Shown here: positions 78 to 14,779 of the stretch, piece by piece
Layout: each line of letters starts with the position of its first letter
Position numbering within the stretch: position 1 is the stretch's first letter
DNA from: a virus
Taxonomy: Duplodnaviria > Heunggongvirae > Uroviricota > Caudoviricetes
Length of the DNA stretch: 14,856 nt
Strand: one strand, 5' to 3'
Virus record (IMG/VR): IMGVR_UViG_2778261223_000017
Notes under the pieces: model-generated
What the model was told of the DNA's origin: nothing
The model's input: the letters and a program-made list of their open reading frames with translations, nothing else
The model's database searches: none
Program-made: the position numbers and the translations under genes

Positions 78-142
78 GGAACGTTACCTGAGCAAGCTGA
101 AAAAATGTTTATGGAGTATGTGAAGAAAGGTTCTTAATTTAC

Positions 143-168
143 AACAAAGGCGGTTATCCCGCCTTTTA
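143..168. terminator. Stem-loop (aaaggcgg / ccgccttt) with flanking T/A runs, likely terminator downstream of the 171-920 gene
   Basis: Perfect 8-bp inverted repeat with a 5-nt loop seen directly, located just past the stop of the minus-strand gene. Confidence 0.5.
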
Positions 169-170
169 TA

Positions 171-920
171 TTACTTGTCCTTTGATGTCGATTGAGACTC
201 ATATATTGTCTCTACGTCATCTATTAGTTTATTAATACCCCACAATCCAGTGTCTTTATAAAAATCACTTTCTTCAATTGCTTTTAATAAATCGGCAAAA
301 TCTTCTTGCGTGGAAATTCTTTTCTTTTTTGCTTTATATATATCGACAATTACTTTTATGCCGTGATACAGATTCACTCTGGCACTCTCAATCTCTCTCT
401 TCTTCTCTTCAATTGCAGACAATAATTTATATTGATCTTCTGTTTGCTTTTCTAGACTTAAAAGCTTGCTCTCTTTTTGCTTCAAGTTGATCTGCAAATC
501 TTTTATTCTTGCCCTCTCTTCTAAATCAAACTCATAGTCAATGTATCTAATTCTTGCATAGTTCCTGCCTGTTGCTTTTGATATACACATTGTTATATAA
601 GGCATTACCACTGACGCAGTGGTTCCATATATAAATGGCATAACAAAATGAGCCACAAACGGAGATACAATGATGGGGCCAACATAAGGAAAGTGATATT
701 TCTCACCAACCCATACTATAGACAATGTTGTATATATATCGTACTTTGATCTAAATAATATAATAATATCCTGCCAGTTAACGACAAAAAAAGAAACCAC
801 AACATATGCAAACAATTTATTAAATAACTTGTCTCTTATGGCTTCTTCGATTGTGTTCCTGACTGTGACATTTTCATCTTTATTTTCTAATGATGAATCT
901 TTGCTCATATAAAAATTCAA
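171..920 (-). CDS. Hypothetical membrane protein: hydrophobic N-terminal half (two to three predicted TM segments), charged coiled-coil-like C-terminal half
   Basis: Long ORF (249 aa) in a visibly AT-rich segment with Lys/Ile/Tyr-rich codon usage unlike its neighbours. Hydrophobic stretches LFAYVVVSFFVV and IIVSPFVAHFVMPFIYGTTASVVMPYI; C-terminal KE-rich heptad-like region. No recognisable catalytic motif. A weak AGAAGG sits upstream of the ATG at 920; an alternative start is at 908. Confidence 0.65.
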   Translation of the reverse strand: MNFYMSKDSSLENKDENVTVRNTIEEAIRDKLFNKLFAYVVVSFFVVNWQDIIILFRSKYDIYTTLSIVWVGEKYHFPYVGPIIVSPFVAHFVMPFIYGTTASVVMPYITMCISKATGRNYARIRYIDYEFDLEERARIKDLQINLKQKESKLLSLEKQTEDQYKLLSAIEEKKREIESARVNLYHGIKVIVDIYKAKKKRISTQEDFADLLKAIEESDFYKDTGLWGINKLIDDVETIYESQSTSKDK

Positions 921-945
921 ACCTTCTTATCTTTATTTTTGGTGA

Positions 946-964
946 AGGCGGTCTTCCAGACCGC
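946..964. other. Intercistronic perfect hairpin (ggcggtct-tcc-agaccgcc) between the HTH gene stop and the membrane-protein gene start
   Basis: 8-bp perfect inverted repeat with 3-nt loop seen directly. It is not followed by a U-run on either strand, so it is more likely an RNA processing or stability element than a terminator. Confidence 0.35.
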
Positions 965-969
965 CAAAC

Positions 970-1329
970 TCAAACACCAACCAGGCTTTCAAGAGGAATG
1001 CCAAACTGGGAATGTAAACGACGAATCATAGGTAACGTCAAATTTCGCGTGCCATTAAGCACTTCGTAAACACGGTTTGACTTACCAATCGCCGGTTCCA
1101 GATCCTTCACGGTCAGCCCTTGCTGTTCCATGCGGAACTTAATGGCCTCAATAGGTGATGGTGGTTGAATTGGGTAATGTTTCTTCTCGTACTCCTCAAT
1201 GAGAAGACTCATAACCTCAAAGAAATCAGCTTCCGGAGTATTCATTTCCGGTTCGTTATCGAACATCGGTTCGACCGCACGCAGTGCGGCCTCATAATCT
1301 TGTTCTGTACGGATAGGTTTAATGTTCAT
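970..1329 (-). CDS. HTH-XRE family protein resembling HigA-type antitoxins (C-terminal helix-turn-helix)
   Basis: 119-aa ORF. The C-terminal segment LTVKDLEPAIGKSNRVYEVLNGTRNLTLPMIRRLHSQFGIPLESL resembles the HTH region of E. coli HigA-family antitoxins as I recall them; the N-terminal IKPIRTEQDYEAAL is typical of that family. Not verified by search. Confidence 0.6.
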   Translation of the reverse strand: MNIKPIRTEQDYEAALRAVEPMFDNEPEMNTPEADFFEVMSLLIEEYEKKHYPIQPPSPIEAIKFRMEQQGLTVKDLEPAIGKSNRVYEVLNGTRNLTLPMIRRLHSQFGIPLESLVGV

Positions 1330-1341
1330 TAATTACAAAGG

Positions 1342-1370
1342 AAAGCCCACTTGCTAAGTGGGCTTTTTGT
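1342..1370. terminator. Hairpin aaagcccactt / aagtgggcttt followed by TTTTT; bidirectional-looking terminator between higA and the downstream HTH gene
   Basis: Inverted repeat and T-run seen directly. Confidence 0.5.
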
Positions 1371-1385
1371 ATGTGTTTTACTATA

Positions 1386-1724
1386 TCAGGCTGCTTTTTT
1401 ATTCAGGTTACGCTGAGAAATAAATTTTTCAGCAGTATTGATACGACTTAACTCTTCCTGAACGCGCATATCATTTTCGACTTCCCACAGATCTACTGCG
1501 GTCTGAAGATTAATCCAAAAATCTACAGAAGTATCGAATGCTTTTGCCAGGCGATATGCCATATCCATCGTTAGCTTACGATTATTATTAACAAGAGCAC
1601 TTACGGTGTTACGATGAACATGAAGTATTTCTGCTAACTCGTTGATCTTCAGCTCTAACGGCTCCAGGTATTCGTACAGCAGGATATCACCTACGGTCGT
1701 CGGTTTTCTGGTTGCCTGTTTCAT
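1386..1724 (-). CDS. higA: HigA antitoxin (HTH, VapI/COG3093-like)
   Basis: 112-aa ORF directly downstream of the higB-like gene on the same strand. The motif TVGDILLYEYLEPLELKINELAEILHVHRNTVSALVNNNRKLTMDMAYRLAKAFDTSVDFWINLQ matches the HigA/VapI antidote HTH family by recall. Confidence 0.8.
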   Translation of the reverse strand: MKQATRKPTTVGDILLYEYLEPLELKINELAEILHVHRNTVSALVNNNRKLTMDMAYRLAKAFDTSVDFWINLQTAVDLWEVENDMRVQEELSRINTAEKFISQRNLNKKAA

Positions 1725-1794
1725 TTTTTGCCCTTACTAGCGTGCGTATTAAGTGGACTCTGGTCAGAACCCGGTCCGTAACCGGGTATCTGTT

Positions 1795-2097
1795 TTAGTA
1801 TTTGTGAGGGTCGAGATACAAGTCCTCGGCCTTTCCGTTAACCCACTTAAAAATTAACCTATATTGCTTATTCACCCTTACTGATGAATAGCCATTTAGC
1901 TTCCCTGACAGTTCCTCATACCGATTACCTGGTGGTGATCTTAAATCCTTACAGGTAGTTGCGGCATTGATAATGTCCAACTTCCGTGACAATGTCATAT
2001 GAATATCAGGAGGTATCTTTCTATGTGGTGTTGAAAATTCAAAAAAATCATCAAGCCACGCATCCCTGAAATCCTTTATGTTAATTTTTTTGGTCAT
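1795..2097 (-). CDS. higB: HigB toxin (plasmid maintenance killer protein, RelE/ParE superfamily)
   Basis: 100-aa ORF. KDFRDAW...LRSPPGNRYEELSGKLNGYSSVRVNKQYRLIFKWVNGKAEDLYLDPHKY matches the HigB/killer-protein family pattern by recall. Toxin-first order with higA downstream. Confidence 0.8.
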   Translation of the reverse strand: MTKKINIKDFRDAWLDDFFEFSTPHRKIPPDIHMTLSRKLDIINAATTCKDLRSPPGNRYEELSGKLNGYSSVRVNKQYRLIFKWVNGKAEDLYLDPHKY

Positions 2098-2142
2098 TAG
2101 TCATTTGATCCTCCGTGATGATTACCGAATGCCATAACTATA

Positions 2143-2179
2143 GCGCACCGTTGCACTGTGCGCAAGTGCATTTTATGAA
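2143..2179. promoter_or_regulatory. Divergent promoter/operator region between higB and the four-gene operon
   Basis: Inverted repeat GCGCAC-N8-GTGCGC overlapping a TTGCAC / 17 bp / TATGAA promoter-like arrangement on the + strand. All read by eye; function inferred. Confidence 0.3.
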
Positions 2180-2259
2180 TTCCCCCTCCTTCATCCAAAA
2201 TCACAATCTCCCGAAAATCTTCCTTTCGATACCTGACAGATCGACCTTTGAGGATGCTT

Positions 2260-3051
2260 ATGGGCCGTTTTGACGAATGGTTTGCTGACGATGCAAACCT
2301 GGCAAGTAAGGAGTCAGAACATGACAGCACGCAGAGAGAAACGCCAGCGCCGATTGAAGTGAATGCAGGAGGCGCGCCGGAACATGGCAATACCGGTTCG
2401 GATTCATTCAGCATTCTGGAAGAGCAACCCGCCGCCAAAGCTGATAGCCATGATAATTTTGCTGATAGCAACGGTGGCCTTACTCCGGATGCTGGCGAAT
2501 CAGATATAGCCATACTTCCACCTTCCCTGGCTGGCAGAGAATCAACTCCACAGCTAAAAGCACGCTATAACGGGCATAAAGCCTTTAACGACCAAATCCG
2601 CGCAGACTGGATGCTGATTATTGAATCCAGCCCAGACGCGTTTCAGGCTCTCTTATATCGACCAGATGTTGGCACATATGGGGTAGTCAGCGACGAAACA
2701 GGAGAAGAGTCATTCACTGAACTGGATAACAACCAACGCGAACTGACTTACCAGGAACCTGAAATCGTTTATGTGCTGGATAACCCTGACGGGCGTGACT
2801 CTTTCCATGCGATTGACGCAGACGGTGAGCAGGATGGCTTAACCGATGATGTTCTGATTCTGCGTATTGCAGCAAATAACGTCCCCGTCGGCTCAATTCT
2901 TGAATGGAATGAAGAGATGGTAAACGGCGTAGCGCGCCGCTGGTGGTACGTGCACCGTATTTTTAGCTACGGCACACAGCATGTTGGTTCGCTTTACTAC
3001 TGCATACCTGCCAGGAATTTTGATACGACTCAAAACGGAGTGATCGAATGA
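2260..3051 (+). CDS. Hypothetical protein, first gene of four-gene operon; acidic low-complexity N-terminal region and structured C-terminal domain
   Basis: ORF with GAGGA Shine-Dalgarno about 5 nt before the ATG at 2260 (the track's 2248 start is a TTG). N-terminal about 110 aa are D/E/S/G/P-rich; the C-terminus contains RRWWYVHRIFSYGTQHVGSLYYCIPARNFD. The stop overlaps the next start (ATGA at 3048-3051). No family recognised. Confidence 0.6.
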   Translation: MGRFDEWFADDANLASKESEHDSTQRETPAPIEVNAGGAPEHGNTGSDSFSILEEQPAAKADSHDNFADSNGGLTPDAGESDIAILPPSLAGRESTPQLKARYNGHKAFNDQIRADWMLIIESSPDAFQALLYRPDVGTYGVVSDETGEESFTELDNNQRELTYQEPEIVYVLDNPDGRDSFHAIDADGEQDGLTDDVLILRIAANNVPVGSILEWNEEMVNGVARRWWYVHRIFSYGTQHVGSLYYCIPARNFDTTQNGVIE

Positions 3052-3815
3052 CTTCAAATAAAACCCTCCTGGCGCGAACAGGTGAATGGCAAACCTCACG
3101 CACAGGAAAATTCCAGACCACGGGCTTTGAAAACGTGGATAACGCGTTTGCGACGCTAATCAGCAACATTTTTTCTGATATCTTACTGGTGGCCCCCGCG
3201 CCGGAAGAAAAACGCTTTGCGTCATTCCTGAATCGTCCACCAGCAGAGCGTGTTTATGTGGCCCGTTTCGACAATGCGATCGAGTTTCTTAAAGCAGTTC
3301 GTCGCGCAAATGCCGGGCAAGGGAGAAAACCTGAAAACCAGAACATTAACCGGGATGCTCTCCCCCTGGTCAATATCTCACGCACTATGGATATCAATTA
3401 TATCAACGATGATCAGCAGATTGACCGCAAAAAAGTAGCCAGTTTTTGCGAACCGGATACCGGAATGCCTTTAGCAGAACTGGAATACACCCAGGCTATT
3501 CTGACGTATGACGTTACGTTAATGGCAACTGATAAAGCGACCATGAGTCTGATGTGTAATTCGCTGGGCGCACGGCTTCGCCTGATGACAGGTACACAAT
3601 TTGAAGCAACCACTCACCTTGTTCGTGTCCCGGTCCCGCTGATTTGCTCGATACAGGATGCCAAAGAAGTCGGCTTTACGGATGTTTCAGCACCAATTGG
3701 AGAAGAGCGTATTTATGCCACACAAGCGCCGATAAGTGTGATTGCAGACGTGATCACAGCATGGGAGTTGGACGCAAAACGTATTATTACCGAAACCTCG
3801 ATATCTATGGGGTGA
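3048..3815 (+). CDS. Hypothetical protein, second gene of four-gene operon
   Basis: 255-aa ORF translationally coupled to the upstream gene (ATGA overlap). No family recognised. Confidence 0.6.
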   Translation: MTSNKTLLARTGEWQTSRTGKFQTTGFENVDNAFATLISNIFSDILLVAPAPEEKRFASFLNRPPAERVYVARFDNAIEFLKAVRRANAGQGRKPENQNINRDALPLVNISRTMDINYINDDQQIDRKKVASFCEPDTGMPLAELEYTQAILTYDVTLMATDKATMSLMCNSLGARLRLMTGTQFEATTHLVRVPVPLICSIQDAKEVGFTDVSAPIGEERIYATQAPISVIADVITAWELDAKRIITETSISMG

Positions 3816-3818
3816 TAA

Positions 3819-4799
3819 GTGGCCCAGGAGTTACAACAATATTTTCTACAGTCAGTGCTCATTAACGATAACAAAGTGCCACGAGACTGGATTTTTACCG
3901 CAGTATATGTAGAAAAAACCAGCCTCAAAGCCCCTTTGCTAAAACTGGAAATTCATGACGCTACCGGCACCGTAATTGATGACTGGAAAGCCAAATACGG
4001 TGCATCGCTGGTGGCTGAAATGGGCGATCCAAACGGTAATGCAGGCACTTTTAAAACAGATTTCTTTGTTACGTCTGCAATGCTGGCTGGTGATGTTGTT
4101 ACCGTTATTGCTGTCAGTGAAGACGTGCGCAGGTTTAAGATCCCCTCCCCGCGCACAAATTTACATACCAACAAAACACCAGACGCTATATTCAAGGCAT
4201 ATTCCGGCAAGCTTAAAATTACCAGCAGCGTGCTAAAACGCGCAGTTACATATCATCTGAATGCCGGTGACAAACCGTCAAAAATGCTTTCGGAGATAGC
4301 GCGAGACAAAGGTGCATTATGTTGGGTATGCCGGGGGGAATTTAACTTTTACACCCTGGCTGATCTGATGAAGCAAACGCCATCATTTACCTACGAGGGG
4401 AATAACCCTAAAGCAGAATACACTTTGTCCAAAATGCGCCTACTCCAACAGGAACATGCGACAACAGCAAAGAATCAATATCGTTTTGTTGGGTATTCCA
4501 TGACCGATGGCTACGTCGAATATGGCGATAGCTCACTCCCAGTGCGTTATATATCCGACTCTGATATGGAAACTCTTCGCAATATGCAGCTGTCTCTCGT
4601 CCCCAAAATGGATATAGAAGTCGCAGGCAATCCTGATATAAAACCGGGGATGGTGATAGAGATTATCGTATACCGCTATGACCAGGAAAACCGCATTGAT
4701 GAATCAATGCCCCGTAAGCTGATAGTAAAAAATGTTGCGCACTTTGAAGACCGCGTAGGCTACACAACACGAATGATATTGGGAGTGCCGAACAAATGA
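3819..4799 (+). CDS. Putative phage baseplate hub protein (late control gene D / gp27-like)
   Basis: 326-aa ORF with a GTG start 4 nt after the previous stop. Segments KMLSEIARDKGALCWVCRGEFNF and GNPDIKPGMVIEIIVYRYDQENRIDESMPRKLIVKNVAHFEDRVGYTTRMIL resemble conserved regions of P2 gpD-family hub proteins by recall. Immediately followed by, and coupled to, a spike-like gene. Confidence 0.5.
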   Translation: MAQELQQYFLQSVLINDNKVPRDWIFTAVYVEKTSLKAPLLKLEIHDATGTVIDDWKAKYGASLVAEMGDPNGNAGTFKTDFFVTSAMLAGDVVTVIAVSEDVRRFKIPSPRTNLHTNKTPDAIFKAYSGKLKITSSVLKRAVTYHLNAGDKPSKMLSEIARDKGALCWVCRGEFNFYTLADLMKQTPSFTYEGNNPKAEYTLSKMRLLQQEHATTAKNQYRFVGYSMTDGYVEYGDSSLPVRYISDSDMETLRNMQLSLVPKMDIEVAGNPDIKPGMVIEIIVYRYDQENRIDESMPRKLIVKNVAHFEDRVGYTTRMILGVPNK

Positions 4800-5449
4800 A
4801 GCGTAGAGCGCAAATTGTTGGAACTGTGCACCCGGCAGGGCTTATGCGTGCTCAAGTCCGTGTTTTACCTGACTGGAATGGCGTTCCTGATGACGATCTA
4901 CCCTGGGCGGAATACCTGTTACCCATCGGAAACGCTTTTGTACCCACAGTCAAAGGTGACCTGGTCTGGGTAGAGTTTCCTTATTTAGATGTTAACGGTC
5001 GAATAGACACCAGACGCCCAATGATAGTTGGTGCCGCTCAGGATGCACCGGGAGGAATTCCAAACGTTGCACCAGAAGCATCTGGCAAAGGCAACGGCTG
5101 GACGCCGCCGGAAGTAGATGGAGCACCTCCCCGCCCCCAAATCTCAGCAACGAAAGACTTCGTTATTCACCGCAACAATATTCTTGAAGTACGAACTGCT
5201 GGTGGCGGCTATGAAATTGCCAATACGGCAGCAGGCGCAAGGATTGGCATGAATGAGTCCGGGCAGATATATATCATTGGTCCGGCTGATGTAATCGTGA
5301 ATGCAGGAGGGAGTGTTAACGTCAAATCAGCCAACAACATCAATGTTAATGGGGAAAATATAGCTGTCACCGCTAACGGAGACATAGCTTTCAAGGCAGG
5401 AGGAACCTTTCAGGCCACTGCTGGCAACTTCGATTTCAAGAAAGGATAG
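4796..5449 (+). CDS. Putative baseplate central spike (gpV / gp5-like OB-fold N-terminus with C-terminal beta-helix repeats)
   Basis: 217-aa ORF. N-terminal IVGTVHPAGLMRAQVRVLPDW...PWAEYLLP...VKGDLVWVEF fits the gp5/VgrG/gpV OB-fold signature. The C-terminus is Gly/Asn/Val/Ala-rich with short periodic repeats (VIVNAGGSVNVKSANNINVNGENIAVTANGDIAFKAGG) typical of a spike beta-helix. ATGA coupling at 4796-4799. Confidence 0.65.
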   Translation: MKRRAQIVGTVHPAGLMRAQVRVLPDWNGVPDDDLPWAEYLLPIGNAFVPTVKGDLVWVEFPYLDVNGRIDTRRPMIVGAAQDAPGGIPNVAPEASGKGNGWTPPEVDGAPPRPQISATKDFVIHRNNILEVRTAGGGYEIANTAAGARIGMNESGQIYIIGPADVIVNAGGSVNVKSANNINVNGENIAVTANGDIAFKAGGTFQATAGNFDFKKG

Positions 5450-5457
5450 AAAATGCA

Positions 5458-5502
5458 CCCATTTGTGTTAGATAATTAATATGTATTTTCTAACACAAAT
5501 GG
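5458..5502. repeat. Perfect 14-bp inverted repeat (ccatttgtgttaga ... tctaacacaaatgg) with 17-bp AT-rich spacer
   Basis: Seen directly between the spike gene stop (5449) and the rdgC-like start (5509). Candidate operator or terminator-like hairpin. Confidence 0.5.
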
Positions 5503-5508
5503 TGATAC

Positions 5509-6414
5509 ATGAGATCAGTCGCTTTCAAAAATATCTTCATCTATCGTCTTTCACGCGAAGTTAGCTGGGATACTGCAGAAGTAAATGCAGCCCTTAGCAA
5601 GTTTGTGTTTACCCCATGCGGTTCTCAGGATATGGCTAAAGCTGGTTGGACCTCCGTTCTTGGTGACAACCTCACCCATGAATACCAGGGTTTTCTTCTG
5701 ATACAGCATAAACGAGAGGAAAAAATCCTACCTTCTCAAGTGCTCAAAGAAGAGTTACAGAAAAAAATCCTGACACTTGAAGAAGAGCAAGACAGAAAGC
5801 TGAAGAAGACCGAAAAAGATTCGCTGAAGGATGAAGTGCTTCACTCTCTTCTTCCTCGTGCTTTCACGAGAAAATCACTCGCCAAAATCCTGATCGACCG
5901 CAGAAACCATCTGGTATTCGTTGAGGCAAGCAGCGCCAAAAAGGCAGAGGACCAGCTGGCTTTATTGCGAAAATCGCTCGGCAGCCTGCCTGTCATTCCA
6001 TTCACACCACGCGAACCGCTGGAAATTACAATGACCGAGTGGTTTAAAAACGGCTTCCCTGCCGGATTTACAGCAGGTGAAGACGCCAAATTAAAGGGTC
6101 TGCTCGATAATGGTGGTGCCGTTCGCTGCAACAAAGTTGATCTACAGTCCGACGAGATTATGTCTCACATTGAGGCGGGGAAAGTAGCTACGACCGTTGC
6201 AATTAACTGGATGGACCGCGCGTCGTTCAGAGTCAACGATGATATGAGTATCAAAGCCCTGACATTCTGTGATGATCTCTATGACCAGAACGACGATATC
6301 GACCGGGAGGATGTAGCACAACGATTTGATGCTGATTTCGTGCTCTTTACGGGCGAATTATCTGCACTGTTTAACGCGCTGGTGGAGGCCATTGGCGGTG
6401 AAGCAGAACGATAA
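5509..6414 (+). CDS. rdgC: RdgC-like recombination-associated DNA-binding protein (divergent homolog)
   Basis: 301-aa ORF. N-terminus [10 protein letters not shown]...[14 protein letters not shown] and central [23 protein letters not shown]...[26 protein letters not shown] closely parallel E. coli RdgC (about 303 aa) as I recall it, though clearly diverged elsewhere. Confidence 0.8.
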
Positions 6415-6430
6415 TAACCGACCGCTTGTT

Positions 6431-7078
6431 GTGAGTCTTTGTGATTTTACGGGGGCAATGGTTGCCCCCTGGCTGGAATACGGTGTCGATGCCGCTATCG
6501 TCGATCCACAGCACTTATCGACCAGTGACGAGCGGATGCAATCAGGTGCCGTTCTGACGCGTATTAGTGCGATCATCGATAGCGATGAAGTATACGCTTT
6601 TCTCCGTAAGAATTTGCAGCGCATCGTGTTTCTGGCCGGGTTCCCACCGTGTACTGACCTGGCTGTTTCCGGCGCGCGCTGGTTTTCGGACAAGGCTAAT
6701 AAAGATCCGGTTTTCCAGTTCAAAGCAATGCAGGTTGTCTGGCAGTGTTATGACATTGCAAAGATGATCGGTTGTCCGTACATGATTGAAAATCCGGTCA
6801 GCAAAATATCGACATTCTGGCGTAAGCCAGATCACATCTTTCACCCTTACTTCTTCACTGCATATTGTCAGGAAGATAACTACACCAAAAAAACATGCCT
6901 CTGGAGCGGCCAGGGCTTTGTCATGCCTGATGCCCTAATGGACGAATCATTAGGCAAGCCAGATAACAGAATCCATGCCGCGCCACCAGGGCCTGACAGG
7001 GCTAATTTTCGAAGTGCTACTCCACATGGATTCGCAAAGGCAGTTTTCGAAGCGAATAAGGGGGTGCTCTATGAGTAA
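6431..7078 (+). CDS. Putative short DNA (cytosine-5) methyltransferase-like protein
   Basis: Contains a motif-I-like LCDFTG, a motif-IV-like GFPPCTDLAVSG (Pro-Cys) and a motif-VI-like IENP. The start is uncertain: the ORF is open back to 6326 and overlaps the rdgC-like gene; GTG 6431 was chosen because it lies just after the rdgC stop and precedes motif I. About 215 aa is short for a C5-methyltransferase, so the call is tentative. Confidence 0.45.
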   Translation: MSLCDFTGAMVAPWLEYGVDAAIVDPQHLSTSDERMQSGAVLTRISAIIDSDEVYAFLRKNLQRIVFLAGFPPCTDLAVSGARWFSDKANKDPVFQFKAMQVVWQCYDIAKMIGCPYMIENPVSKISTFWRKPDHIFHPYFFTAYCQEDNYTKKTCLWSGQGFVMPDALMDESLGKPDNRIHAAPPGPDRANFRSATPHGFAKAVFEANKGVLYE

Positions 7079-7976
7079 ATCTATAGCAAGCATAGCCATA
7101 GAAAAACAGGATACGATGGCTGAAATTAGCTATATGCGCACCATTCGGACTCCGGATGAATATGAGCGTCCGATATTCAAATGGGTAGGTGGTAAATTCT
7201 CAGAATTGCCTACAGTGCTTGAGCATCTACCACACGGTAAGCGGTTAATAGAACCATTCGTTGGTGGCGGTTCCGTATTTACGAATGCAGGATTTCGCCA
7301 CAACCTGCTTAATGATATTAACGGTGACCTGATTAACTTCTATCAGACATTGCAGCGAGAAGGACATTCGCTCGTCACGCTGTCATATAGTTTTTTCCAA
7401 AATTACAACAACGCTGACGCTTACCTCGAAGTGCGTGAGGCATTTAACAGAGGAAAGTATGACCAGCTACATCATGCTGCCGCCTTTTTGTACCTTAATC
7501 GGCACTGTTTTAATGGCGTAACGCGGTACAACCAAAATGGCGAGTTCAACGTGGGGTATGGCAAATACAAAGCACCCTACTTCCCACACGCAGAGATGGA
7601 GGCATTTTTGGCTGATGACGTACTCAAAAACACGTCCTTTGTATCAGGTGACTTTGCTGGCGTCATCGAGGCGGCTGGTGAAGGCGATGTGATTTTTTGC
7701 GATCCGCCGTATGAACCGCTGCCGGATACAGAAGGGTTTACCAGTTATTCAGGAAATAGCTTCCGTTTCGACGAACAGAAACGGCTGGTATCTCTATTGG
7801 TGGAAGCCCACCAGCGCGGCGCTAAGGTAGTGATAACAAATAGTGGTGCGCCAAACATCCGTGAACTATATGAAGGAAACGGGTTTAAAGTACATCATAT
7901 GGCAGCCAGACGGTCGGTGTCCTGCAAGGCGTCAACACGTGTAGTTGCTAACGATATAATTGCAATAATGAAGTAA
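7071..7976 (+). CDS. dam: Dam-like DNA adenine (N6) methyltransferase
   Basis: FKWVGGK, EPFVGGGSVF, LYLNRHCFNGVTRYNQNGEFNVGYGKYKAPYFP and the catalytic DPPY motif parallel E. coli Dam. AAGGGGG Shine-Dalgarno before the ATG at 7071; the start overlaps the preceding gene's stop by 8 nt. Confidence 0.85.
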   Translation: MSKSIASIAIEKQDTMAEISYMRTIRTPDEYERPIFKWVGGKFSELPTVLEHLPHGKRLIEPFVGGGSVFTNAGFRHNLLNDINGDLINFYQTLQREGHSLVTLSYSFFQNYNNADAYLEVREAFNRGKYDQLHHAAAFLYLNRHCFNGVTRYNQNGEFNVGYGKYKAPYFPHAEMEAFLADDVLKNTSFVSGDFAGVIEAAGEGDVIFCDPPYEPLPDTEGFTSYSGNSFRFDEQKRLVSLLVEAHQRGAKVVITNSGAPNIRELYEGNGFKVHHMAARRSVSCKASTRVVANDIIAIMK

Positions 7977-8008
7977 AAAACGCCGCAGTAGCGGCGTTTA
8001 CTTTTTTA
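7977..8008. terminator. Bidirectional rho-independent terminator (acgccgc-agta-gcggcgt with A-run before and T-run after)
   Basis: Seen directly between the convergent dam-like and glnS genes. Confidence 0.7.
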
Positions 8009-8024
8009 TGTGGCGAAATACCTA

Positions 8025-9686
8025 TTAACCTAACTTCGCCCAGGTATCACGCAGCCCAACGGTGCGGTTAAATACCGGTTTTTCCGCCGTAGAATGGCGG
8101 CTGTCGAGGCAGAAATAACCTTCACGCTCAAACTGGAATGCTTTACCCGCTACCGCGTCTTTCAGAGACGGTTCAGCAAAGCCCTGTTTGATCACCAGCG
8201 ATTCCGGGTTAATCACCGACAGGAAATCATCCGCAGCACCTGGGTTCGGCACGCTGAACAGACGGTCATACAAACGGATTTCAACCGGCAGCGCATGTGC
8301 CGCGCTCACCCAGTGAATAACACCTTTGACTTTACGACCATCTGCCGGATCTTTGCTTAAGGTATCGGCGTCATAAGTACAGAAGATGGTGGTGATATTA
8401 CCTTCGGCATCTTTCTCGACGCGTTCTGCCTTAATCACATAAGCATTACGCAGACGCACTTCTTTACCCAGCACCAGACGTTTGTACTGCTTGTTAGCTT
8501 CTTCGCGGAAATCGGCGCGATCAATCCAAATCTCACCGCTAAACGGCACCTGACGGCTCCCCATTTCCGGTTTGTTCGGATGGTTCGGCATGGTGACCAT
8601 TTCGCCTTCGCCCTGATAGTTTTCGATAACCAGTTTCACCGGATCGATAACCGCCATTGCGCGCGGCGCATTTTCGTTGAGATCTTCACGGATGCAGGAT
8701 TCCAGCGACGCCATCTCAATGGTGTTGTCCTGCTTGGTCACGCCGATGCGTTTGCAGAACTCACGAATAGAAGCAGCAGTGTAACCACGACGACGCAGAC
8801 CGGAAATGGTCGGCATACGCGGGTCATCCCAGCCTTCAACGTGCTTGTCGGTCACCAGCAGGTTCAGCTTACGCTTGGACATCACAGTGTATTCCAGATT
8901 CAGGCGCGAGAATTCGTACTGGCGCGGGTGAACAGGAATGGTGATGTTGTCCAGTACCCAGTCATACAGACGACGGTTGTCCTGGAACTCAAGCGTACAC
9001 AGAGAGTGCGTAATACCTTCCAGCGCATCGCTGATGCAGTGGGTGAAGTCGTACATCGGGTAGATGCACCACTTGTTGCCAGTCTGGTGGTGTTCAGCAA
9101 ACTTAATGCGGTACAGCACCGGGTCGCGCATCACGATAAACGGCGAAGCCATATCGATTTTCGCACGCAGGCAGGCTTTACCTTCTTCAAAACCACCGGC
9201 ACGCATTTTTTCGAACAGCGCCAGGTTCTCTTCAACGCTGCGATCGCGGTACGGGCTATTTTTACCCGGCTGCGTCAGGGTGCCGCGGTATTCGCGGATC
9301 TGTTCCGGCGTCAGTTCGTCAACATACGCCAGGCCTTTGTTGATCAGTTCAACAGCATAGGCATGGAGTTTGTCAAAATAATCGGAGGAGTAACGGATGT
9401 TGCCAGACCAGTGAAAACCTAACCATTCAACGTCGTTTTTAATCGACTCGACGTACTCGATATCTTCTTTTACCGGGTTAGTGTCGTCGAAACGCAGGTT
9501 GCACTGGCCTTTATAGTCCTGGGCGATCCCGAAGTTCAGGCAGATAGATTTCGCATGGCCAATATGCAGATAGCCATTCGGCTCCGGCGGGAAACGGGTG
9601 TGTACTGTGGTGTGCTTACCACTGGCCAGATCTTCATCGATGATCTGACGAATAAAGTTAGTCGGGCGGGCTTCTGCCTCACTCAT
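8025..9686 (-). CDS. glnS: Glutaminyl-tRNA synthetase
   Basis: 553-aa ORF. N-terminus [47 protein letters not shown] (class I HIGH motif) and a VMSKR-type KMSKS motif; near-identical to E. coli GlnS as recalled. Confidence 0.97.
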
Positions 9687-9875
9687 TGTGGATTCCTCAA
9701 AGCGTAAACAACGTATAACAGCGTATGATCTTATAAGCCGAATAGGCTGACAACCACTAGTTGATTAGAAATTGCTTTCTATCGTTATTTCAATAATGAG
9801 CTTTTTCATGAAGCCCACTTTTGCGCATAAGTAAATTAATGACAAATGGTACACAATTGGAACCAAAAAGGATGT

Positions 9876-9913
9876 AAAGGTGCACCAAATTAGTGGTGTA
9901 TTGGTGCACCTTT
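9876..9913. promoter_or_regulatory. Perfect 13-bp palindrome arms (aaaggtgcaccaa ... ttggtgcaccttt) with 12-bp spacer in the glnS-upstream / partition-downstream intergenic region
   Basis: Seen directly. Could be an operator, a centromere-like site or a terminator hairpin for the upstream partition operon. Confidence 0.4.
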
Positions 9914-9954
9914 GGTTCAAGACTTTTTAAGTTCTAAAACCAACCTGAAAGACT

Positions 9955-10242
9955 TTATTTTGCTTCCTCAGACTCCGCTAACATGAGGATAGCATGGCGG
10001 ATCATATTCAATTTGCTGCGATTATGCTTTTTACTTAACGCATCAAGTACTTGGTACTCGTATTCATTGAAACCAACACGAATAGATTTAAAATCACGTG
10101 GAGCGTCCTTATCGAGCACTTTGTTGTCTTCTGGTTGCTCACCCGGCACCAAATCAGCCTTACTGGCAAAATCCTCAATTCGGCGTTCAAGATCAGGGTC
10201 TTTTACTTCGGGGGCTTTTACCGATTTACGAGGCTTAATCAC
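9955..10242 (-). CDS. Small partition-operon DNA-binding protein (ParG/ParB-like, probable ribbon-helix-helix)
   Basis: 95-aa basic ORF directly downstream of and overlapping (8 nt) the ParA-like gene. Disordered N-terminus, then C-terminal KSIRVGFNEYEYQVLDALSKKHNRSKLNMIRHAILMLAE consistent with a beta-strand plus helices RHH fold. Confidence 0.55.
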   Translation of the reverse strand: MIKPRKSVKAPEVKDPDLERRIEDFASKADLVPGEQPEDNKVLDKDAPRDFKSIRVGFNEYEYQVLDALSKKHNRSKLNMIRHAILMLAESEEAK

Positions 10243-10876
10243 TTAATAACTCCTTAACCAACATCTGGATTTCACCTTTAGCTTTCCCGTTGTCCATCTC
10301 AACAACGCCCTTCCCTTCAGCCATGCAATCGCGGTAAACCTTACGATCACGAATGATGGTTTTCAGCAACTTCAGTTGCGGATATTCAGCCAGGTACTCT
10401 TTGGCCTCATTGGTTTCATTCACAACCGGATTGGATGGGGCCATTGTTAAGACTGCGAACGCCTTGATGCTAGGATTAGGCATCAGGTCCAAAGCCTCTT
10501 CAAACACTTCAACAAAGTGTGCCAGCGTGTCTAAATCTGGTTGAGATGGTCTGAATGGGACCAACACAATATCTGCAGCGGTTATGCCTGTACGCATCTC
10601 TTTGCTATCGCGCCCGGCTGTATCAACAACTACAAATTCATAACGCTTATCCAGATCGAGAAGTGTTTCTCGAATATTACCAAACTTCTGGACACAATGA
10701 ATTACAGGAGAAACCTCTGCCGTGTTACGGTCAGCTGCCCAGCGGGCAGCTGTTCCTTGCTTGTCTGCATCTAGTAACACTACATCCTTATTTTCGCGGG
10801 CAAGCTCCGCACAGATGTTTACGCTTGTGGTTGATTTTCCACAGCCACCTTTTTGGCTGACTACCAATATAATCAT
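10235..10876 (-). CDS. parA: ParA/ParF-type partition ATPase (deviant Walker A)
   Basis: VVSQKGGCGKSTTSVNICAEL Walker A box and VVVDTAGRD Walker B-like motif. Start chosen at ATG 10876 (GAGGA Shine-Dalgarno 5 nt upstream) rather than the track's TTG at 10906. Confidence 0.85.
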   Translation of the reverse strand: MIILVVSQKGGCGKSTTSVNICAELARENKDVVLLDADKQGTAARWAADRNTAEVSPVIHCVQKFGNIRETLLDLDKRYEFVVVDTAGRDSKEMRTGITAADIVLVPFRPSQPDLDTLAHFVEVFEEALDLMPNPSIKAFAVLTMAPSNPVVNETNEAKEYLAEYPQLKLLKTIIRDRKVYRDCMAEGKGVVEMDNGKAKGEIQMLVKELLSD

Positions 10877-11114
10877 ATCCGTTCCTCGGTGTGATTTTGG
10901 TATCAAAACGGTTCCAGATAAGAGCCTTTTTGATGCGGGACAGGCTCTATAATGGAGTCATGAATGTTTGGCAAAGTATAACATCAATCAGACCAAATAC
11001 ACCTTATATTGCATCCTATTTAACACGAAAGCAGCCCCAAATTGGAACCAGATACAAAATTGCACCATAACAGCACCTAACTGGTGCCAGATTAACACTA
11101 ATTAGACACCATTA

Positions 11115-11146
11115 AGGCATAAAAAAGGCTGCAATTTGCAGCCTTA
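11115..11146 (-). terminator. Rho-independent terminator after parR (aaggctgca-loop-tgcagcctt followed by a U-run on the minus strand)
   Basis: Seen directly. Confidence 0.65.
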
Positions 11147-11163
11147 AACCAGCACATCTTCTG

Positions 11164-11502
11164 TCAATCAGGTAGAGAGTCAGCCAGATTGCGCGCCGAC
11201 GCGCTTTTGGCAACAAATTGCTCCTTCACTGGCTCAATGGAGGCAGGGCGCTCCTCAACCGCAGCTGGTAGTTCCAAGAAGGATGCCAGCATTTTTCGGA
11301 TCAGCTCCGGGTTATTGTCTTCGGTCAGCAGGGAAGCCAGTAATCCTGGAAGCCTGCTATCGACTTCTCCCAGCGCAAGCCCTGCCAACAATGCAGTTCT
11401 TGCCATATCGCTATGTTTTTTTATCTTCTCGCTCGCCGCCTTTTCATTGGCATAAGCCTCTGGGCGAAGATAAATCATCACTTTCTTACGTTCCTGAGAC
11501 AT
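11164..11502 (-). CDS. parR: ParR/StbB-like centromere-binding protein
   Basis: Small ORF immediately downstream of parM. ARTALLAGLALG resembles the R1 ParR motif NRAALTAGLALY by recall. Start at ATG 11502 (ACGAGG 7 nt upstream); 11508 is an alternative. Confidence 0.65.
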   Translation of the reverse strand: MSQERKKVMIYLRPEAYANEKAASEKIKKHSDMARTALLAGLALGEVDSRLPGLLASLLTEDNNPELIRKMLASFLELPAAVEERPASIEPVKEQFVAKSASARNLADSLPD

Positions 11503-11514
11503 GGACATACCTCG

Positions 11515-12471
11515 TTAACCGATTGCTTTCAGGCCATGAACAAGAGCAAGTTGCGGGTCATCCGCCACGAAGAAACGGTCATCACGAATATTAACTTGCT
11601 CGCGAATTGCATCTGCCACCAGCGGTGCGCCACCACCGATCACCATGACATGCGTATATCCTTTAAAGTCGCCAATCACATCAAGAACGCGGGTACGCAG
11701 ACGGTCAATGCTTGCGGCAATGGCCTTTTTCACATCACCAATCGCTAATGGGTCATTGATATTGTCGTTCAGATAATCTTCATCGTGGCGGTTAATAATG
11801 AGCTGATCAACATTGTAATTTGACGTTTCGGTATTGGCCCTTGCAAGTGCTTGCCTTACTTCCCTGGTGACCAGTGATACACCAAGATTCGAATCGCCAA
11901 AAACACGGGAAACTGCCGTCATTTGTCCAGCGACCATTGAAACATCAAGGGTAGTTCCACCCAAATCGACGATAAGAACAGAGTGGGCAGGGTTCAGATT
12001 GTCGCACAGGCTAATTCCCGCCGGGATAGACTCCGGGCGTACCGTAACTTTCTTAATAGTGAATACATTGCCTTTATTCAGCGTGACGGGGCGCATAAGA
12101 CTGGCTTTCTTGCGCTCGATGTTATCGAGATTGTATTGCGCGTCGTCGTCGTAAAACTCTGCCAGAGGCAGCGTGACCACAATTTCTACTTCCTGCGGCT
12201 CAATACCGCTTGTCAGCAGGGCATGGTGAACAGCCAGGACGTTAAGCGGGCTGTATTGCCATTCCACATTATTCGTCGGCAGAACATCTGGCGATATCAA
12301 GTCGTATGAATACTTTTCGTCGTCAATGACATAGTTAAACGGCTTGCCCGCACCAAATGTTGCTGACCATCCGCGCTTAAAGCTGTTAGGGCTGATGTGA
12401 GTGCGAGTTTCCCCGTCGTGCTCCCACAGCATTTTGATATTGGTTGAACCATCATCGATAAAAATGCGCAT
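11515..12471 (-). CDS. parM: ParM/StbA actin-like partition ATPase
   Basis: MRIFIDDGSTNIKM..., HISPNSFKRGW, AVHHALLTSG, NIERKKA, ESIPAG, LIVDLGGTTLD, GDSNLGVSLVT and GYTHVMVIGGGA parallel R1 ParM motif by motif. Start at ATG 12471 (GGAG upstream); the track start 12495 is 8 codons longer. Confidence 0.9.
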   Translation of the reverse strand: MRIFIDDGSTNIKMLWEHDGETRTHISPNSFKRGWSATFGAGKPFNYVIDDEKYSYDLISPDVLPTNNVEWQYSPLNVLAVHHALLTSGIEPQEVEIVVTLPLAEFYDDDAQYNLDNIERKKASLMRPVTLNKGNVFTIKKVTVRPESIPAGISLCDNLNPAHSVLIVDLGGTTLDVSMVAGQMTAVSRVFGDSNLGVSLVTREVRQALARANTETSNYNVDQLIINRHDEDYLNDNINDPLAIGDVKKAIAASIDRLRTRVLDVIGDFKGYTHVMVIGGGAPLVADAIREQVNIRDDRFFVADDPQLALVHGLKAIG

Positions 12472-12495
12472 CTTCTTGCTCCACTTCTGAGACAC

Positions 12496-12660
12496 ATTTG
12501 AGAATCAAAATGTAATTTTAAAAGAGAAGCCCCCAAAAATCCACACCAAACGAGATAAAAAAGGGCGCTTGTTGAGTTTATTTTGAGAATATCTTAATCA
12601 CCCACCGAATGATGGTCTGATAGTGAGATTTATTTGAGAGCGAATTGAGAATACAAAAAT
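12496..12660. repeat. Candidate parC-like centromere: repeated TTGAGA(A/G)-containing elements upstream of parM
   Basis: TTGAGAAT at about 12499 and 12582, TTGAGAG at about 12634, TTGAGAAT at about 12649; two longer related copies gagtttattttgagaat and gagatttatttgagagc. Seen directly; the role is inferred from position upstream of parMR. Confidence 0.4.
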
Positions 12661-12737
12661 ATTCCGAAATTTAACTCTCCGTTTGAATGACGAAATAACA
12701 AAGTGATGACAATAGAAGGATAACCAGGAGGTGAAGA

Positions 12738-13022
12738 ATGAGCGCAATAGCCACCAGCGACACCCTTTGTTCTGGTCACGGAGGATTTCCGCCGCGACTG
12801 GTAGCTGAAACCGTTCCCTGGTTCACCGTTAACGGTAAGCCAGTTGTTGTAGATGGTGCCATGTTTCCCAGTCACACTGACGGTAACAGTGCACATCCAG
12901 GGGCAGCTGTATCGACGCGAGCATGGTTTTCGATAGGTGGAAAGGGAGTTGTCTGTGTAGGCGATCTGCTTTCTTGTGGTTCTGTTATCGCCAACGGCGA
13001 GGATATTTTTCAGGTTGCATAA
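12738..13022 (+). CDS. PAAR-like domain protein (spike-tip protein)
   Basis: 94-aa ORF with strong AGGAGGTG Shine-Dalgarno. Repeated motif pattern FTVNGKPVVVDGAMF and SIGGKGVVCVGDLLSCGSVIANG with conserved Cys/His/Gly positions typical of PAAR proteins. Confidence 0.7.
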   Translation: MSAIATSDTLCSGHGGFPPRLVAETVPWFTVNGKPVVVDGAMFPSHTDGNSAHPGAAVSTRAWFSIGGKGVVCVGDLLSCGSVIANGEDIFQVA

Positions 13023-13828
13023 TGCTTGATTCAATAGGTGAAGTTAAAGCCTTCAAAATTCTGTCAGATGCCGGTATCTCTACACCAGAATCTATAACCA
13101 TAAGCCGAGCAGCTTCTGTAAAAGCCTCATCGCTCGCCAGCGCCATACAGGGAATAGTTCACGCCGATAAAACCTATCCTGATTCTGTTTCGGCCTGGAC
13201 TACTCAATTGCTTGGCTTTTCTGAACAGCTCAATGAGGCCAGCAAAGCGTCTTCATTACTGGCTGATTCTCTTTCCCCATACACCAAGCCATCAGAGCTG
13301 TTACAGATGAAGATTGGCTGGGAATGCTACGCAAAAGGTAACGAGCTGACCCCCATACCTGCTTTCGCCCTTGTTGAGGGAATGGGGAATGTTTCCATTC
13401 CGCAATCTCTAACGGACGCATTGACGGCGCTAAAACTTGATGCTCTGAAAACCGCCATGAACGCCATTAACGCAAAAATTGAAGCTGCCGGAAGTGCTGG
13501 TGGTGGTGATAGCAATGGTGGACAGGGTGGTGCTGGGGGCGCTCAGGCTCCAGTCATTACTCAGGATGAAATTGATGCTTTACGGGAAGCAGTGACAGCC
13601 GCCGAAGCTTTACTCTCCGAAATTAACTCAGCAAGTGAGAGTGTCGTAGCCCTTACAGGTCGCATTAAAACGTCAACCACTCAGGCAACCAAAGGTTTAG
13701 AGAACGCTGTCGCCATCACGTTAACTGGCTCTCTACTGGATGATGCAGTAATGAGTCCGGCAATCAGTTTAATCATGCCACAAGGCGTTATCGATGCGCT
13801 CCAAAAGAACACCAAAAAGGAACCATAG
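13022..13828 (+). CDS. Hypothetical protein coupled to the PAAR gene; Ala/Ser/Thr/Leu-rich with an internal Gly-rich linker
   Basis: Start ATG overlaps the PAAR stop (TAATG at 13020-13024). Predicted helical, no TM segment, linker AGSAGGGDSNGGQGGAGGAQAP. No family recognised. Confidence 0.6.
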   Translation: MLDSIGEVKAFKILSDAGISTPESITISRAASVKASSLASAIQGIVHADKTYPDSVSAWTTQLLGFSEQLNEASKASSLLADSLSPYTKPSELLQMKIGWECYAKGNELTPIPAFALVEGMGNVSIPQSLTDALTALKLDALKTAMNAINAKIEAAGSAGGGDSNGGQGGAGGAQAPVITQDEIDALREAVTAAEALLSEINSASESVVALTGRIKTSTTQATKGLENAVAITLTGSLLDDAVMSPAISLIMPQGVIDALQKNTKKEP

Positions 13829-13883
13829 CAACACCACTTAGGCACACAAAAGGATGTAATTTGGTACATGTTTAACACCGAAA

Positions 13884-14357
13884 ATGAACCTGAAGAGGAT
13901 GGTTTTGAAAAAGATAATTTTGATTGTAATTGCGCTTTTAGCCATTTCTGGAATTTACCGAACAACGACGGCAGTTATCGAACACATCAGGTATGTCCGA
14001 TCGCTTGAAGACTCAAAATCACAACTGGAAAGCACGAACAACACGCTTTCTACCGCATTACAGTTAAGTGAGAACGCTCGCTCAGCCATGCTGACCGAAA
14101 ACGAAAGAATTAAAGCACTGGAAAAGGAGTACCAGCGCAAAACAGCAGAACTGAATGCCAACCTAATCAAACAACGAGAGGAAAGCCAGAATGAAATCAC
14201 TCGCCTTGAAAATGCGTTACGCCGTGCTGGGATTAACGATGTGCGTGTGCCTGATGACGTTATCAGGATGCAGCGGGAACGGGCAAAAGCCATCAACCAG
14301 CGTGCCAGTGAAAATTACCGTAGAAGCCACCAGCAAGCCGCAGGCAAATCTGATTGA
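13884..14357 (+). CDS. Rz-like inner-membrane spanin (i-spanin): N-terminal TM anchor plus periplasmic coiled coil
   Basis: N-terminal hydrophobic segment KKIILIVIALLAISGIY followed by a charged heptad-rich region. NALRRAGINDVRV resembles the Rz C-terminal region of lambda by recall. An overlapping +1-frame lipoprotein gene is embedded at its 3' end. Confidence 0.6.
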   Translation: MNLKRMVLKKIILIVIALLAISGIYRTTTAVIEHIRYVRSLEDSKSQLESTNNTLSTALQLSENARSAMLTENERIKALEKEYQRKTAELNANLIKQREESQNEITRLENALRRAGINDVRVPDDVIRMQRERAKAINQRASENYRRSHQQAAGKSD

Positions 14358-14523
14358 TTACTCCCCTTGTTTAGTGCCAGAAGACACGCCAGTGCTGTTA
14401 AACAAGTATCCGACATACGCTGAACAGTTATTCAGCACGATCGACGAATGCAACCAACGAAACGCACTGAATAACCAAAGAAACAGGGAGATTTGGGAAG
14501 GGAAGGGGGATCAAGGCTCCTGA
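14191..14523 (+). CDS. Rz1-like outer-membrane lipoprotein spanin (o-spanin), overlapping the i-spanin gene in another frame
   Basis: GAGGAAAG Shine-Dalgarno before the ATG at 14191. Signal peptide with lipobox LSGC (MKSLALKMRYAVLGLTMCVCLMTLSGC), Pro-containing mature region, and two further Cys residues. The gene begins inside the Rz-like gene and extends past it, the overlapped spanin architecture. Confidence 0.55.
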   Translation: MKSLALKMRYAVLGLTMCVCLMTLSGCSGNGQKPSTSVPVKITVEATSKPQANLIDYSPCLVPEDTPVLLNKYPTYAEQLFSTIDECNQRNALNNQRNREIWEGKGDQGS

Positions 14524-14779
14524 AGCCAGATGTCCTGGCTGTCAGCTTCTTCGAAACCGTGACAGACGTTAAAGTCACTCAAACGATACTGACGCTGACG
14601 GCCCCTATTTCGCTCATGCCAATGCATATATCCACCAGCAAATGCCAGCGGACAATCGCTATAGTCTATGTAACCAATACCATTCCCCAAACGTGCTTCG
14701 CGCGCACCAGCTTTCCAGGACAGTAGAAAAGAGTCACGATCCGCCAGCATAACAACAAAATCGTCCGGATCTCCGATAC

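Follow-up and report, generated by a model that had tools for sequence, protein, structure and literature searches.

An overlapping gene pair of a D6-like plasmid prophage encodes a PAAR-fold spike tip and a putative UpfB tripod subunit

The gene pair at positions 12738-13828 of a 14,856-nt stretch of Caudoviricetes DNA (IMG/VR record IMGVR_UViG_2778261223_000017; this whole stretch is called the window here) is the phage D6 version of the genes for UpfC and UpfB of phage P1. In our assessment, the two genes probably encode the distal end of a D6-type contractile tail, consisting of a PAAR tip and a UpfB tripod subunit, and not a toxin-delivery cassette. The window consists of D6-like plasmid-prophage DNA: over nucleotides 12600-14600 it shares 99.8% identity with Escherichia phage D6, a plasmid prophage related to P1, and nucleotides 76-14779 are 99.9% identical to D6-like plasmids, e.g. 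Salmonella pYU39_89. The GenBank record of D6 describes orf57 as "PAAR motif, similar to P1 gene upfC" and orf56 as "similar to P1 gene upfB", and the orf56 product is 100% identical to the 268-aa protein of the window. The ORFs of the hub and the spike (Table 1) are annotated in D6 as similar to P1 genes 6 and 5, respectively. Public records and papers already contain the two genes, their resemblance to upfC and upfB of P1 and the roles of the P1 proteins, and the pair is a rediscovery.

Table 1 Features of the window that bear on the PAAR-UpfB gene pair
Feature	Position	Strand	Basis
gp6-like baseplate hub gene	3819..4799	+	P1 Gp6 in baseplate structure 9vzk, E=7.6e-72; PHROG 1390 tail protein
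gp5-like central spike gene, predicted partner of the PAAR tip	4796..5449	+	P1 Gp5 (9vzk_q), E=2.9e-55; PHROG 430 baseplate hub/spike
Intergenic region between parM (minus strand) and PAAR gene	12496..12737	.	TGAGA-type direct repeats; presumed promoter of the PAAR operon
PAAR-fold spike-tip gene, orthologue of P1 upfC and T4 5.4, 94 aa	12738..13022	+	PF05488; matches to solved UpfC and gp5.4
TAATG overlap coupling the PAAR gene to the UpfB-like gene	13020..13024	+	Read from sequence
UpfB-like gene, 268 aa, putative spike-tip 'tripod' subunit	13022..13828	+	Identity to D6 orf56; P1 UpfB homology; PHROG 1559
Gly-rich hinge (residues about 157-176) between N-terminal helical bundle and long C-terminal helix	13490..13549	+	Low pLDDT; length variation
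Rz-like inner-membrane spanin gene	13884..14357	+	PHROG Rz-like spanin families 214, 89, 2466
Rz1-like outer-membrane lipoprotein spanin gene	14212..14523	+	PHROG 456 Rz-like spanin, E=4.7e-5; lipobox

The upstream ORF of the pair starts with ATG. An earlier note on this DNA had called its product PAAR-like, and this assignment holds: the 94-aa protein scores 28.5 bits against the Pfam family PAAR_motif (PF05488; cut-off 27, E=1.8e-6), matches PHROG 281 with E=1.7e-28 and aligns through residues 1-93 to the solved UpfC of P1 (9vyi_A, E=7e-35), to which it is 56% identical. T4 gp5.4 is matched as well (5iv5_ZA, E=1.8e-4; 4ku0_D, E=3.5e-4), and a tblastn search with the 94-aa protein found relatives in 235 phage records, mostly T4-like myoviruses, at the position of gene 5.4. 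Canonical PAAR proteins bind a metal at their apex through three histidines and one cysteine. According to the alignment of 17 PAAR orthologues, H14, H46 and C80 are kept throughout and H53 is kept too, except for a one-residue shift in a single orthologue (L041), a His/Cys pattern that would be compatible with an apex metal site. The equivalog model for PAAR proteins of type VI secretion systems (NCBIfam T6SS_PAAR, NF033420) returns 34.2 bits for the 94-aa protein at a cut-off of 124, and the gene stands among phage tail, plasmid partition and lysis genes, not in a T6SS gene context. The 94-aa protein is a phage spike tip and not a T6SS PAAR protein.

The second ORF opens with the first in-context ATG, in another frame than the PAAR ORF. 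P1 UpfB aligns to its product collinearly over the full length (residues 1-262; 27% identity, 50% positives, E=3e-23), with the Gly/Ser-rich stretch of P1 UpfB falling at the same place of the alignment as the Gly-rich hinge of the D6-type protein, and PHROG 1559, a family without annotated function, is matched with E=1e-110. We searched a profile derived from an alignment of the D6 clade (A1) against 1.84 billion representative proteins. This search returned 74 sequences only, of which the full-length ones are almost all about 240-265 aa long, and it retrieved with E=1.5e-35 the P1-type member P0059, which is 53% identical to P1 UpfB. The uniform length of these matches and the inclusion of P1-type members indicate a single UpfB family that is small, uniform in architecture and located in P1-like gene contexts. 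PAAR-UpfB fusion proteins are absent from the 74 profile matches. The dN/dS ratio of the UpfB-like gene (0.15-0.18) reflects purifying selection and hence a real gene. For the PAAR gene the ratio is 0.04-0.05 against close alleles, and with low values for both members and a recurrence of the pair in dozens of loci down to 27% identity, these are genuine genes and not chance ORFs.

The P1 counterparts have been studied by genetics and cryo-EM. UpfC was first tied to T4 gp5.4 by HHpred, in a study in which phage with an upfC deletion showed normal plating (PMC9024508). Infectious phage is obtained with in-frame deletions of upfB as well as of upfC (published supplementary Table S3), and CRISPRi classified upfB, upfC and their neighbours ppfA and mlp as non-essential (PMC10695390). 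Two cryo-EM studies, one of them PMC12810830, place UpfC at the tip of the P1 gp5 needle. In the same PLoS Pathogens 2026 work, extra density at the spike tip was assigned to "three trimeric tripod (UpfB)" anchored on the tip (PMC12810830); the map of the tripod is of medium resolution, and an AlphaFold3 trimer of UpfB was fitted into it with no atomic model built (PMC12810830). A later paper describes three UpfB copies attached to UpfC, as opposed to three trimers in PMC12810830. UpfB was absent among the proteins detected by LC-MS/MS of P1 virions, although Gp6, with three copies, was found. Trypsin releases only six peptides of 7-25 residues from P1 UpfB, and the small number of peptides suited to mass spectrometry may explain why the protein was missed.

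By this orthology, the 268-aa protein matches a phage structural protein, P1 UpfB having been assigned to the virion. The earlier note had proposed an effector, adaptor or immunity component and had itself named such a match as the result that would speak against its proposal, which is not borne out: beyond the orthology to UpfB, no signature of any of these functions is found in Pfam, NCBIfam or PADLOC. We infer from P1 that the D6 protein is present in the virion, is oligomeric and contacts the PAAR tip. Since the assignment of UpfB in P1 is weak, a different role stays a live rival, namely that of a non-virion assembly factor, a chaperone or scaffold that folds or loads the PAAR protein and is then discarded. 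The tight translational coupling to the PAAR gene, the all-helical and flexible architecture typical of chaperones, the failure to detect UpfB in P1 virions by LC-MS/MS and the assignment of the P1 tripod solely through the fit of a predicted model would all agree with such a factor. We nevertheless regard it as unlikely, given that the extra density at the P1 spike tip fits the model of a UpfB trimer.

The predicted structure agrees with membership in the UpfB family. An AlphaFold2 model of the 268-aa protein calculated from alignment A1 is all-helical (mean pLDDT 82.5, pTM 0.74) and contains helices at residues 23-45, 54-87, 90-106, 116-136 and 140-158, a 58-residue helix at 181-238 and two short C-terminal helices. 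Residues 160-173 are disordered with pLDDT below 50, in agreement with the earlier description of a helical protein with a flexible Gly-rich linker. The long helix 181-238 displays an a/d heptad pattern with a mean hydropathy of 2.2 at positions a and d versus -0.6 elsewhere. Sequence analysis of the 268-aa protein revealed no transmembrane segment, signal peptide, lipobox or hydrophobic hairpin. Pfam, NCBIfam and PADLOC hold no family that matches it, the latter two giving no match of any weight, and in a Pfam search of 52 UpfB family members no family was common to more than 3 of them at E values up to 1. Toxin, T6SS adaptor (DUF4123, DUF1795, DUF2169), immunity and defence domains were looked for in the same three collections and none was found in the 268-aa protein.

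PAAR proteins of T6SS have the same fold, which caps a trimeric β-helical spike, and there, too, the product of the next gene is thought to sit on the cone. In contrast to T6SS loci, the D6-type locus is devoid of T6SS genes and encodes neither a toxin domain nor an adaptor or immunity protein, and the partner belongs to a family of putative phage virion proteins restricted to P1-like elements (the 74 sequences among 1.84 billion). One loose point in favour of the earlier note is that the 268-aa protein would be carried on the PAAR tip, much like T6SS cargo.

In line with the effector idea of the earlier note, and by analogy with PAAR-associated effectors of T6SS, the 268-aa protein could also be a cargo that travels on the PAAR tip and is released to the periplasm or membrane of the host, where it would act on the envelope, for example by an opening of its helical bundle on a membrane. 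If the P1 assignment holds, it would indeed ride the PAAR cone and enter the envelope together with the spike, and its central region evolves fast. We consider this role very unlikely all the same, as it is opposed by several observations: the protein matches no toxin, enzyme, T6SS adaptor or immunity family and contains no hydrophobic hairpin, transmembrane segment or secretion signal; the genes that follow are those for spanins and not an immunity-like gene; a lysogen would express the protein only with the late genes; loss of upfB in P1 is without plating phenotype; and the structural matches of the 268-aa model are those of any long helical bundle.

We compared the pair in 39 loci, comprising 36 IMG/VR contigs, one Citrobacter genome, P1 and Cronobacter phage JK004. 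All 39 have the PAAR gene as the direct upstream neighbour of the UpfB homologue, at UpfB identities from 99% down to 27%, and the conservation of the pair in related loci, proposed in the earlier note as a check, is thus without exception in this set. Remote members of the UpfB family were located by exact sequence look-up. Two of these, L046 and L047, likewise have the PAAR gene directly upstream of the UpfB-like gene, in the order gene-7-like, hub, spike, optional cargo, PAAR, UpfB-like, Rz-like, cargo, major capsid and sheath. In L041 and L043, the PAAR gene comes right after the spike gene, and the UpfB-like gene follows at a distance of 1.5-2.6 kb, directly ahead of the capsid gene. Both genes lie within the tail and head structural block in the remote relatives, and the separation of the UpfB-like gene from the PAAR gene in two of them, still inside that block, speaks against a chaperone or scaffold dedicated to the PAAR protein.

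The cognate spike is present in the same element, as a gp5-type β-helical protein encoded next to the hub. The location of spike and hub at 3819-5449, some 7 kb away from the pair and behind glnS and two partition systems, was described correctly in the earlier note; the genes between spike and PAAR gene are rdgC, two DNA methyltransferase genes, glnS, a ParA-like pair and parM with its partner (parMR). The note had further taken the puncturing apparatus to be split across the island. The distance of about 7 kb is real, whereas a special design behind it is not supported by the relatives, in which cargo accumulates at the same position, and in P1 the same kind of interruption lies between gene 5 and the PAAR gene. 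The 7-kb gap of D6 is therefore the result of accessory and plasmid-maintenance genes that accumulated between gene 5 and the PAAR gene.

The translational coupling of the two genes, which had been read from the overlap of the PAAR stop with the start of the 268-aa ORF, is supported by the junction TAATG, in which the last A of the TAA stop codon (13020-13022) is the first base of the ATG start codon (13022-13024). An AGGTG motif resembling a Shine-Dalgarno sequence lies inside the final PAAR codons. The junction reads TAATG or TGATG in 35 of the 39 related loci, and likewise in L046; P1 and Cronobacter phage JK004 have a spacer of 8-9 nt and a separate ribosome-binding site between the two genes. 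The stop/start overlap would co-ordinate the synthesis of the PAAR protein and its UpfB-like partner.

Upstream of the pair, the intergenic region 12496-12737 contains the repeat families D1-D3 and a single weak sigma-70-like site at 12634-12663. In related loci, the aligned counterpart of the motif AAATAACAAA (12693-12702) is CAAATCACAAAC. Motifs like CAAATCACAAAC are kept upstream of the PAAR gene in D6-clade loci, at a count within the window that is not above chance. A P1-type late promoter was also considered, using an operator-like motif from the upstream region of P1; it gave only matches with 3 mismatches, which is chance level, and this candidate was rejected.

Downstream, the two genes that follow the pair have the hallmarks of a two-component spanin, i.e. 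a transmembrane Rz and an overlapping, out-of-frame lipoprotein Rz1. The Rz-like protein has an N-terminal transmembrane segment at residues 6-24 (KD19 2.48), the Rz1-like protein carries the lipobox LSGC at residues 17-20, and the Rz1 gene overlaps the end of Rz at 14212-14357 in another frame; Rz and Rz1 are also annotated at the equivalent positions of P1. Similarity to Rz is detected downstream of the UpfB gene in 35 of the 39 loci and similarity to Rz1 in 38. The pair has the same orientation as Rz/Rz1, the gap between the UpfB-like gene and Rz is short, and no terminator is predicted in it, such that the pair is probably co-transcribed with the spanin genes. This arrangement, and the nearly constant position of the UpfB gene just ahead of Rz/Rz1-type genes in the loci examined, could be taken to mean that the 268-aa protein acts in lysis together with the spanins, e.g. 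as a regulator of or accessory to Rz/Rz1. Such a function is barely credible in our view: the protein has no signal peptide, transmembrane segment or lipobox and hence has no route to the periplasm, the site of spanin action, PHROGs contain no lysis family that matches it, its divergence in the loci L018-L020 tracks that of the PAAR gene and not that of Rz, and the cryo-EM assignment in P1 puts UpfB on the tail.

Comparison of closely related loci points to a distinct history of the pair. Against L018 and L019, synonymous divergence amounts to 0.35 for the PAAR gene and 0.26-0.42 for the UpfB gene, compared to 0.009-0.09 for Rz, and the upstream gene parM is 93-97% identical. The divergence of PAAR and UpfB genes is far above that of the adjacent Rz, so that the pair together with its upstream intergenic region appears to have a history separate from its neighbours and to be exchanged as a unit. 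The comparison to L020 gives a nucleotide identity of 74-80% for the PAAR gene and the initial 80 nt of the UpfB gene, followed by a drop to 43-63% in UpfB codons about 27-226 and a rise to 88-95% in the last 40 UpfB codons and Rz/Rz1. Column entropies of the UpfB alignment separate conserved segments at residues 1-20, 91-110 (SELLQMKIGWECYAKGN), 141-150 and 221-260 from the variable helices between them, and the length differences of 1-8 residues among near-identical UpfB alleles fall almost entirely within the Gly-rich hinge. Conservation of the N-terminus, of residues 91-110 and of the C-terminus alongside variable central helices fits a protein with a conserved docking part and an exposed part; the conserved segments may thus be docking or oligomerisation elements and the variable ones exposed surface. 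A hypervariable centre and co-exchange with the PAAR gene are also better explained by an exposed, host-facing component of the tail than by an assembly factor that is discarded.

The D6 pair resembles that of P1 in its orthology (56% identity for PAAR, 27% for UpfB), in the gene order PAAR, UpfB, Rz, Rz1, in the separation of genes 5 and 6 from the pair by accessory genes and in the predicted architecture of UpfB with the Gly-rich hinge at the same place. It differs in that the D6 genes overlap (TAATG), whereas those of P1 are 8-9 nt apart with an own ribosome-binding site for the second gene, and in that the central helices of UpfB are highly diverged. T4 gp5.4 is a small, monomeric PAAR-fold cone on the gp5 β-helix with detectable sequence homology (E=1.8e-4). 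In contrast to D6, T4 has no UpfB homologue; the neighbouring gene 5.1 encodes a small unrelated protein, whose binding to gp5.4 is only modelled, in one paper. The gp5 of T4 also has a lysozyme domain, which the spike of P1 and D6 lacks.

Taken together with the P1 and T4 structures, the preferred reading of the pair as the distal end of the tail suggests the following assembly. The monomeric 94-aa PAAR cone would cap the blunt end of the trimeric gp5-like spike, like UpfC and gp5.4. The 268-aa protein is predicted to be soluble and to consist of an N-terminal bundle, a Gly hinge of variable length, a long heptad helix and a conserved C-terminus; by analogy to P1, it would oligomerise and dock on the faces of the PAAR cone to form a tripod as on the P1 tip. 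The tip assembly would then be the first part of the tail to be driven into the host envelope at infection. Tripod and tip would likely aid engagement or penetration of the outer membrane and would not be strictly required, because P1 without upfB or upfC still forms plaques. The absence of a plating defect on deletion or knock-down of upfB and upfC in P1 argues that the tripod would be a fitness or host-range accessory rather than a core part. T4 gp5.4 is dispensable for assembly and matters for fitness and for infection of hosts with truncated LPS.

A more far-reaching proposal, which we put forward as a speculation and consider doubtful, is that the UpfB tripod is an exchangeable, host-facing module. 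Its termini would dock on the cone, and the hypervariable bundle and hinge would be the first to touch the outer membrane or LPS, thereby tuning which envelopes can be penetrated, or would be released into the periplasm like T6SS PAAR cargo. If true, the UpfB tripod would be a previously unrecognised determinant of host range or penetration in P1-like phage-plasmids.

P1-like phage-plasmids are common in E. coli and Salmonella, and the pair illustrates how their injection needle is completed at the tip. Of the two parts, the PAAR tip is well characterised, and its helical partner was put on the virion only in 2026. To this, the present analysis makes small additions, namely the small size and uniform length of the UpfB family, its nearly constant translational coupling to the PAAR gene, the apparent co-exchange of the pair, the conserved ends and variable middle of UpfB and the polymorphism in hinge length, which offer handles for tests of penetration and host range.

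Judged by their sequence, both termini of the window are ends of insertion sequences (IS) of the IS3 family, with D6-like DNA limited to positions 76–14779. An inverted-repeat terminus (…ggaaacccggggcggttca) closes positions 1–75, and from 14780 on TGAACCGCCCCGG… comes first, followed by the start of orfA (MTKNTRF). One IS/D6 junction lies within the P1 gene-25-like tail gene, ~60 nt ahead of its stop, and the other within a homologue of D6 orf53. Either this prophage copy has received two IS insertions and may be defective, or the contig was merely broken at IS repeats.

The D6-like interval carries several cargo genes in addition to the PAAR gene and the UpfB-like gene that overlaps it. The phage-plasmid glnS, which is also annotated in D6 and D6-like plasmids, is placed between methyltransferase genes and partition genes, and the latter form two distinct modules, ParA-like and ParM, that adjoin each other. 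A HigB/RelE–HigA pair is located directly 5′ of the tail gene block; relatives hold different toxin–antitoxin pairs (ParE/Phd, HicAB) in comparable cargo positions.

Positions of cargo genes and of the motif upstream of the PAAR gene
Feature	Position	Strand	Basis
glnS, glutaminyl-tRNA synthetase, 553 aa, full-length, host-like	8025–9686	minus	
Partition module: ParA-like ATPase and small partner	9955–10906	minus	
Partition module: ParM (StbA) actin-like ATPase and small partner	11164–12495	minus	
parM	11515–12495	minus	
HigB/RelE-type toxin (100 aa) and HigA-type HTH antitoxin (112 aa)	1386–2097	minus	
CAAATCACAAAC-type motif	window 12693–12702; related loci L020–L031 at ~3680–3700		comparison of D6-clade loci

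Upstream of parM, positions 12488–12660 contain TGAGA-type direct repeats (TGAGAnnnAnTTGAGA, some spaced 11 nt), which by appearance resemble a parC-type centromere or a ParR-binding array. This putative array and the presumed promoter of the PAAR operon appear to occupy one common intergenic region. A motif, CAAATCACAAAC (AAATAACAAA in D6), is kept ~25–45 nt 5′ of the PAAR start in D6-clade loci, and a comparable AAATCACAAT is found ahead of the gene-7-like tail operon at positions 2198–2207. The motif may represent a late-promoter element, although its count within the window shows no excess over chance.

We compared the all-helical AlphaFold2 model of the 268-aa UpfB-like protein (mfb4466770ebc) with BFVD, where it gave weak matches to DUF7217 proteins of ~240 aa (TM 0.40–0.54, E 1e-3 to 2e-2) encoded by Pectobacterium phage Wc4 and by Serratia phage 3M. 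Salmonella phage 38 is likewise among the weak BFVD matches, and similarity drops further for E. coli phage FEC14, at E 0.58.

Adjacency of the PAAR and UpfB-like genes is common, not universal, since the two are separated in the remote relatives L041 and L043. In both of these loci the spike gene is followed directly by the PAAR gene, small ORFs (in L043 also a methyltransferase gene) part the latter from the UpfB-like gene, and the major capsid gene is located directly 3′ of the UpfB-like gene.

The UpfB-like protein also varies in its Gly-rich hinge, which is coded at positions 13490–13549 by repeats rich in GGT/GGC and differs in length by 1–8 residues between alleles that are otherwise 94–98% identical. 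One database variant of the protein, P0021, has a frameshift at its start.

Divergence is unevenly distributed along this part of the D6-like DNA. Compared with the related loci L020–L023, the centre of the UpfB-like gene (positions 13100–13700) retains 43–63% nucleotide identity, whereas the ends of the same gene, the PAAR gene and the downstream spanin-like genes Rz/Rz1 retain 74–95%, well above the gene centre. For two further related loci, L018 and L019, synonymous divergence of PAAR and UpfB amounts to many-fold the value for Rz. This unevenness, both at the centre of the UpfB-like gene and between PAAR/UpfB and Rz, points to exchange of the tip pair, PAAR together with UpfB, as a module.
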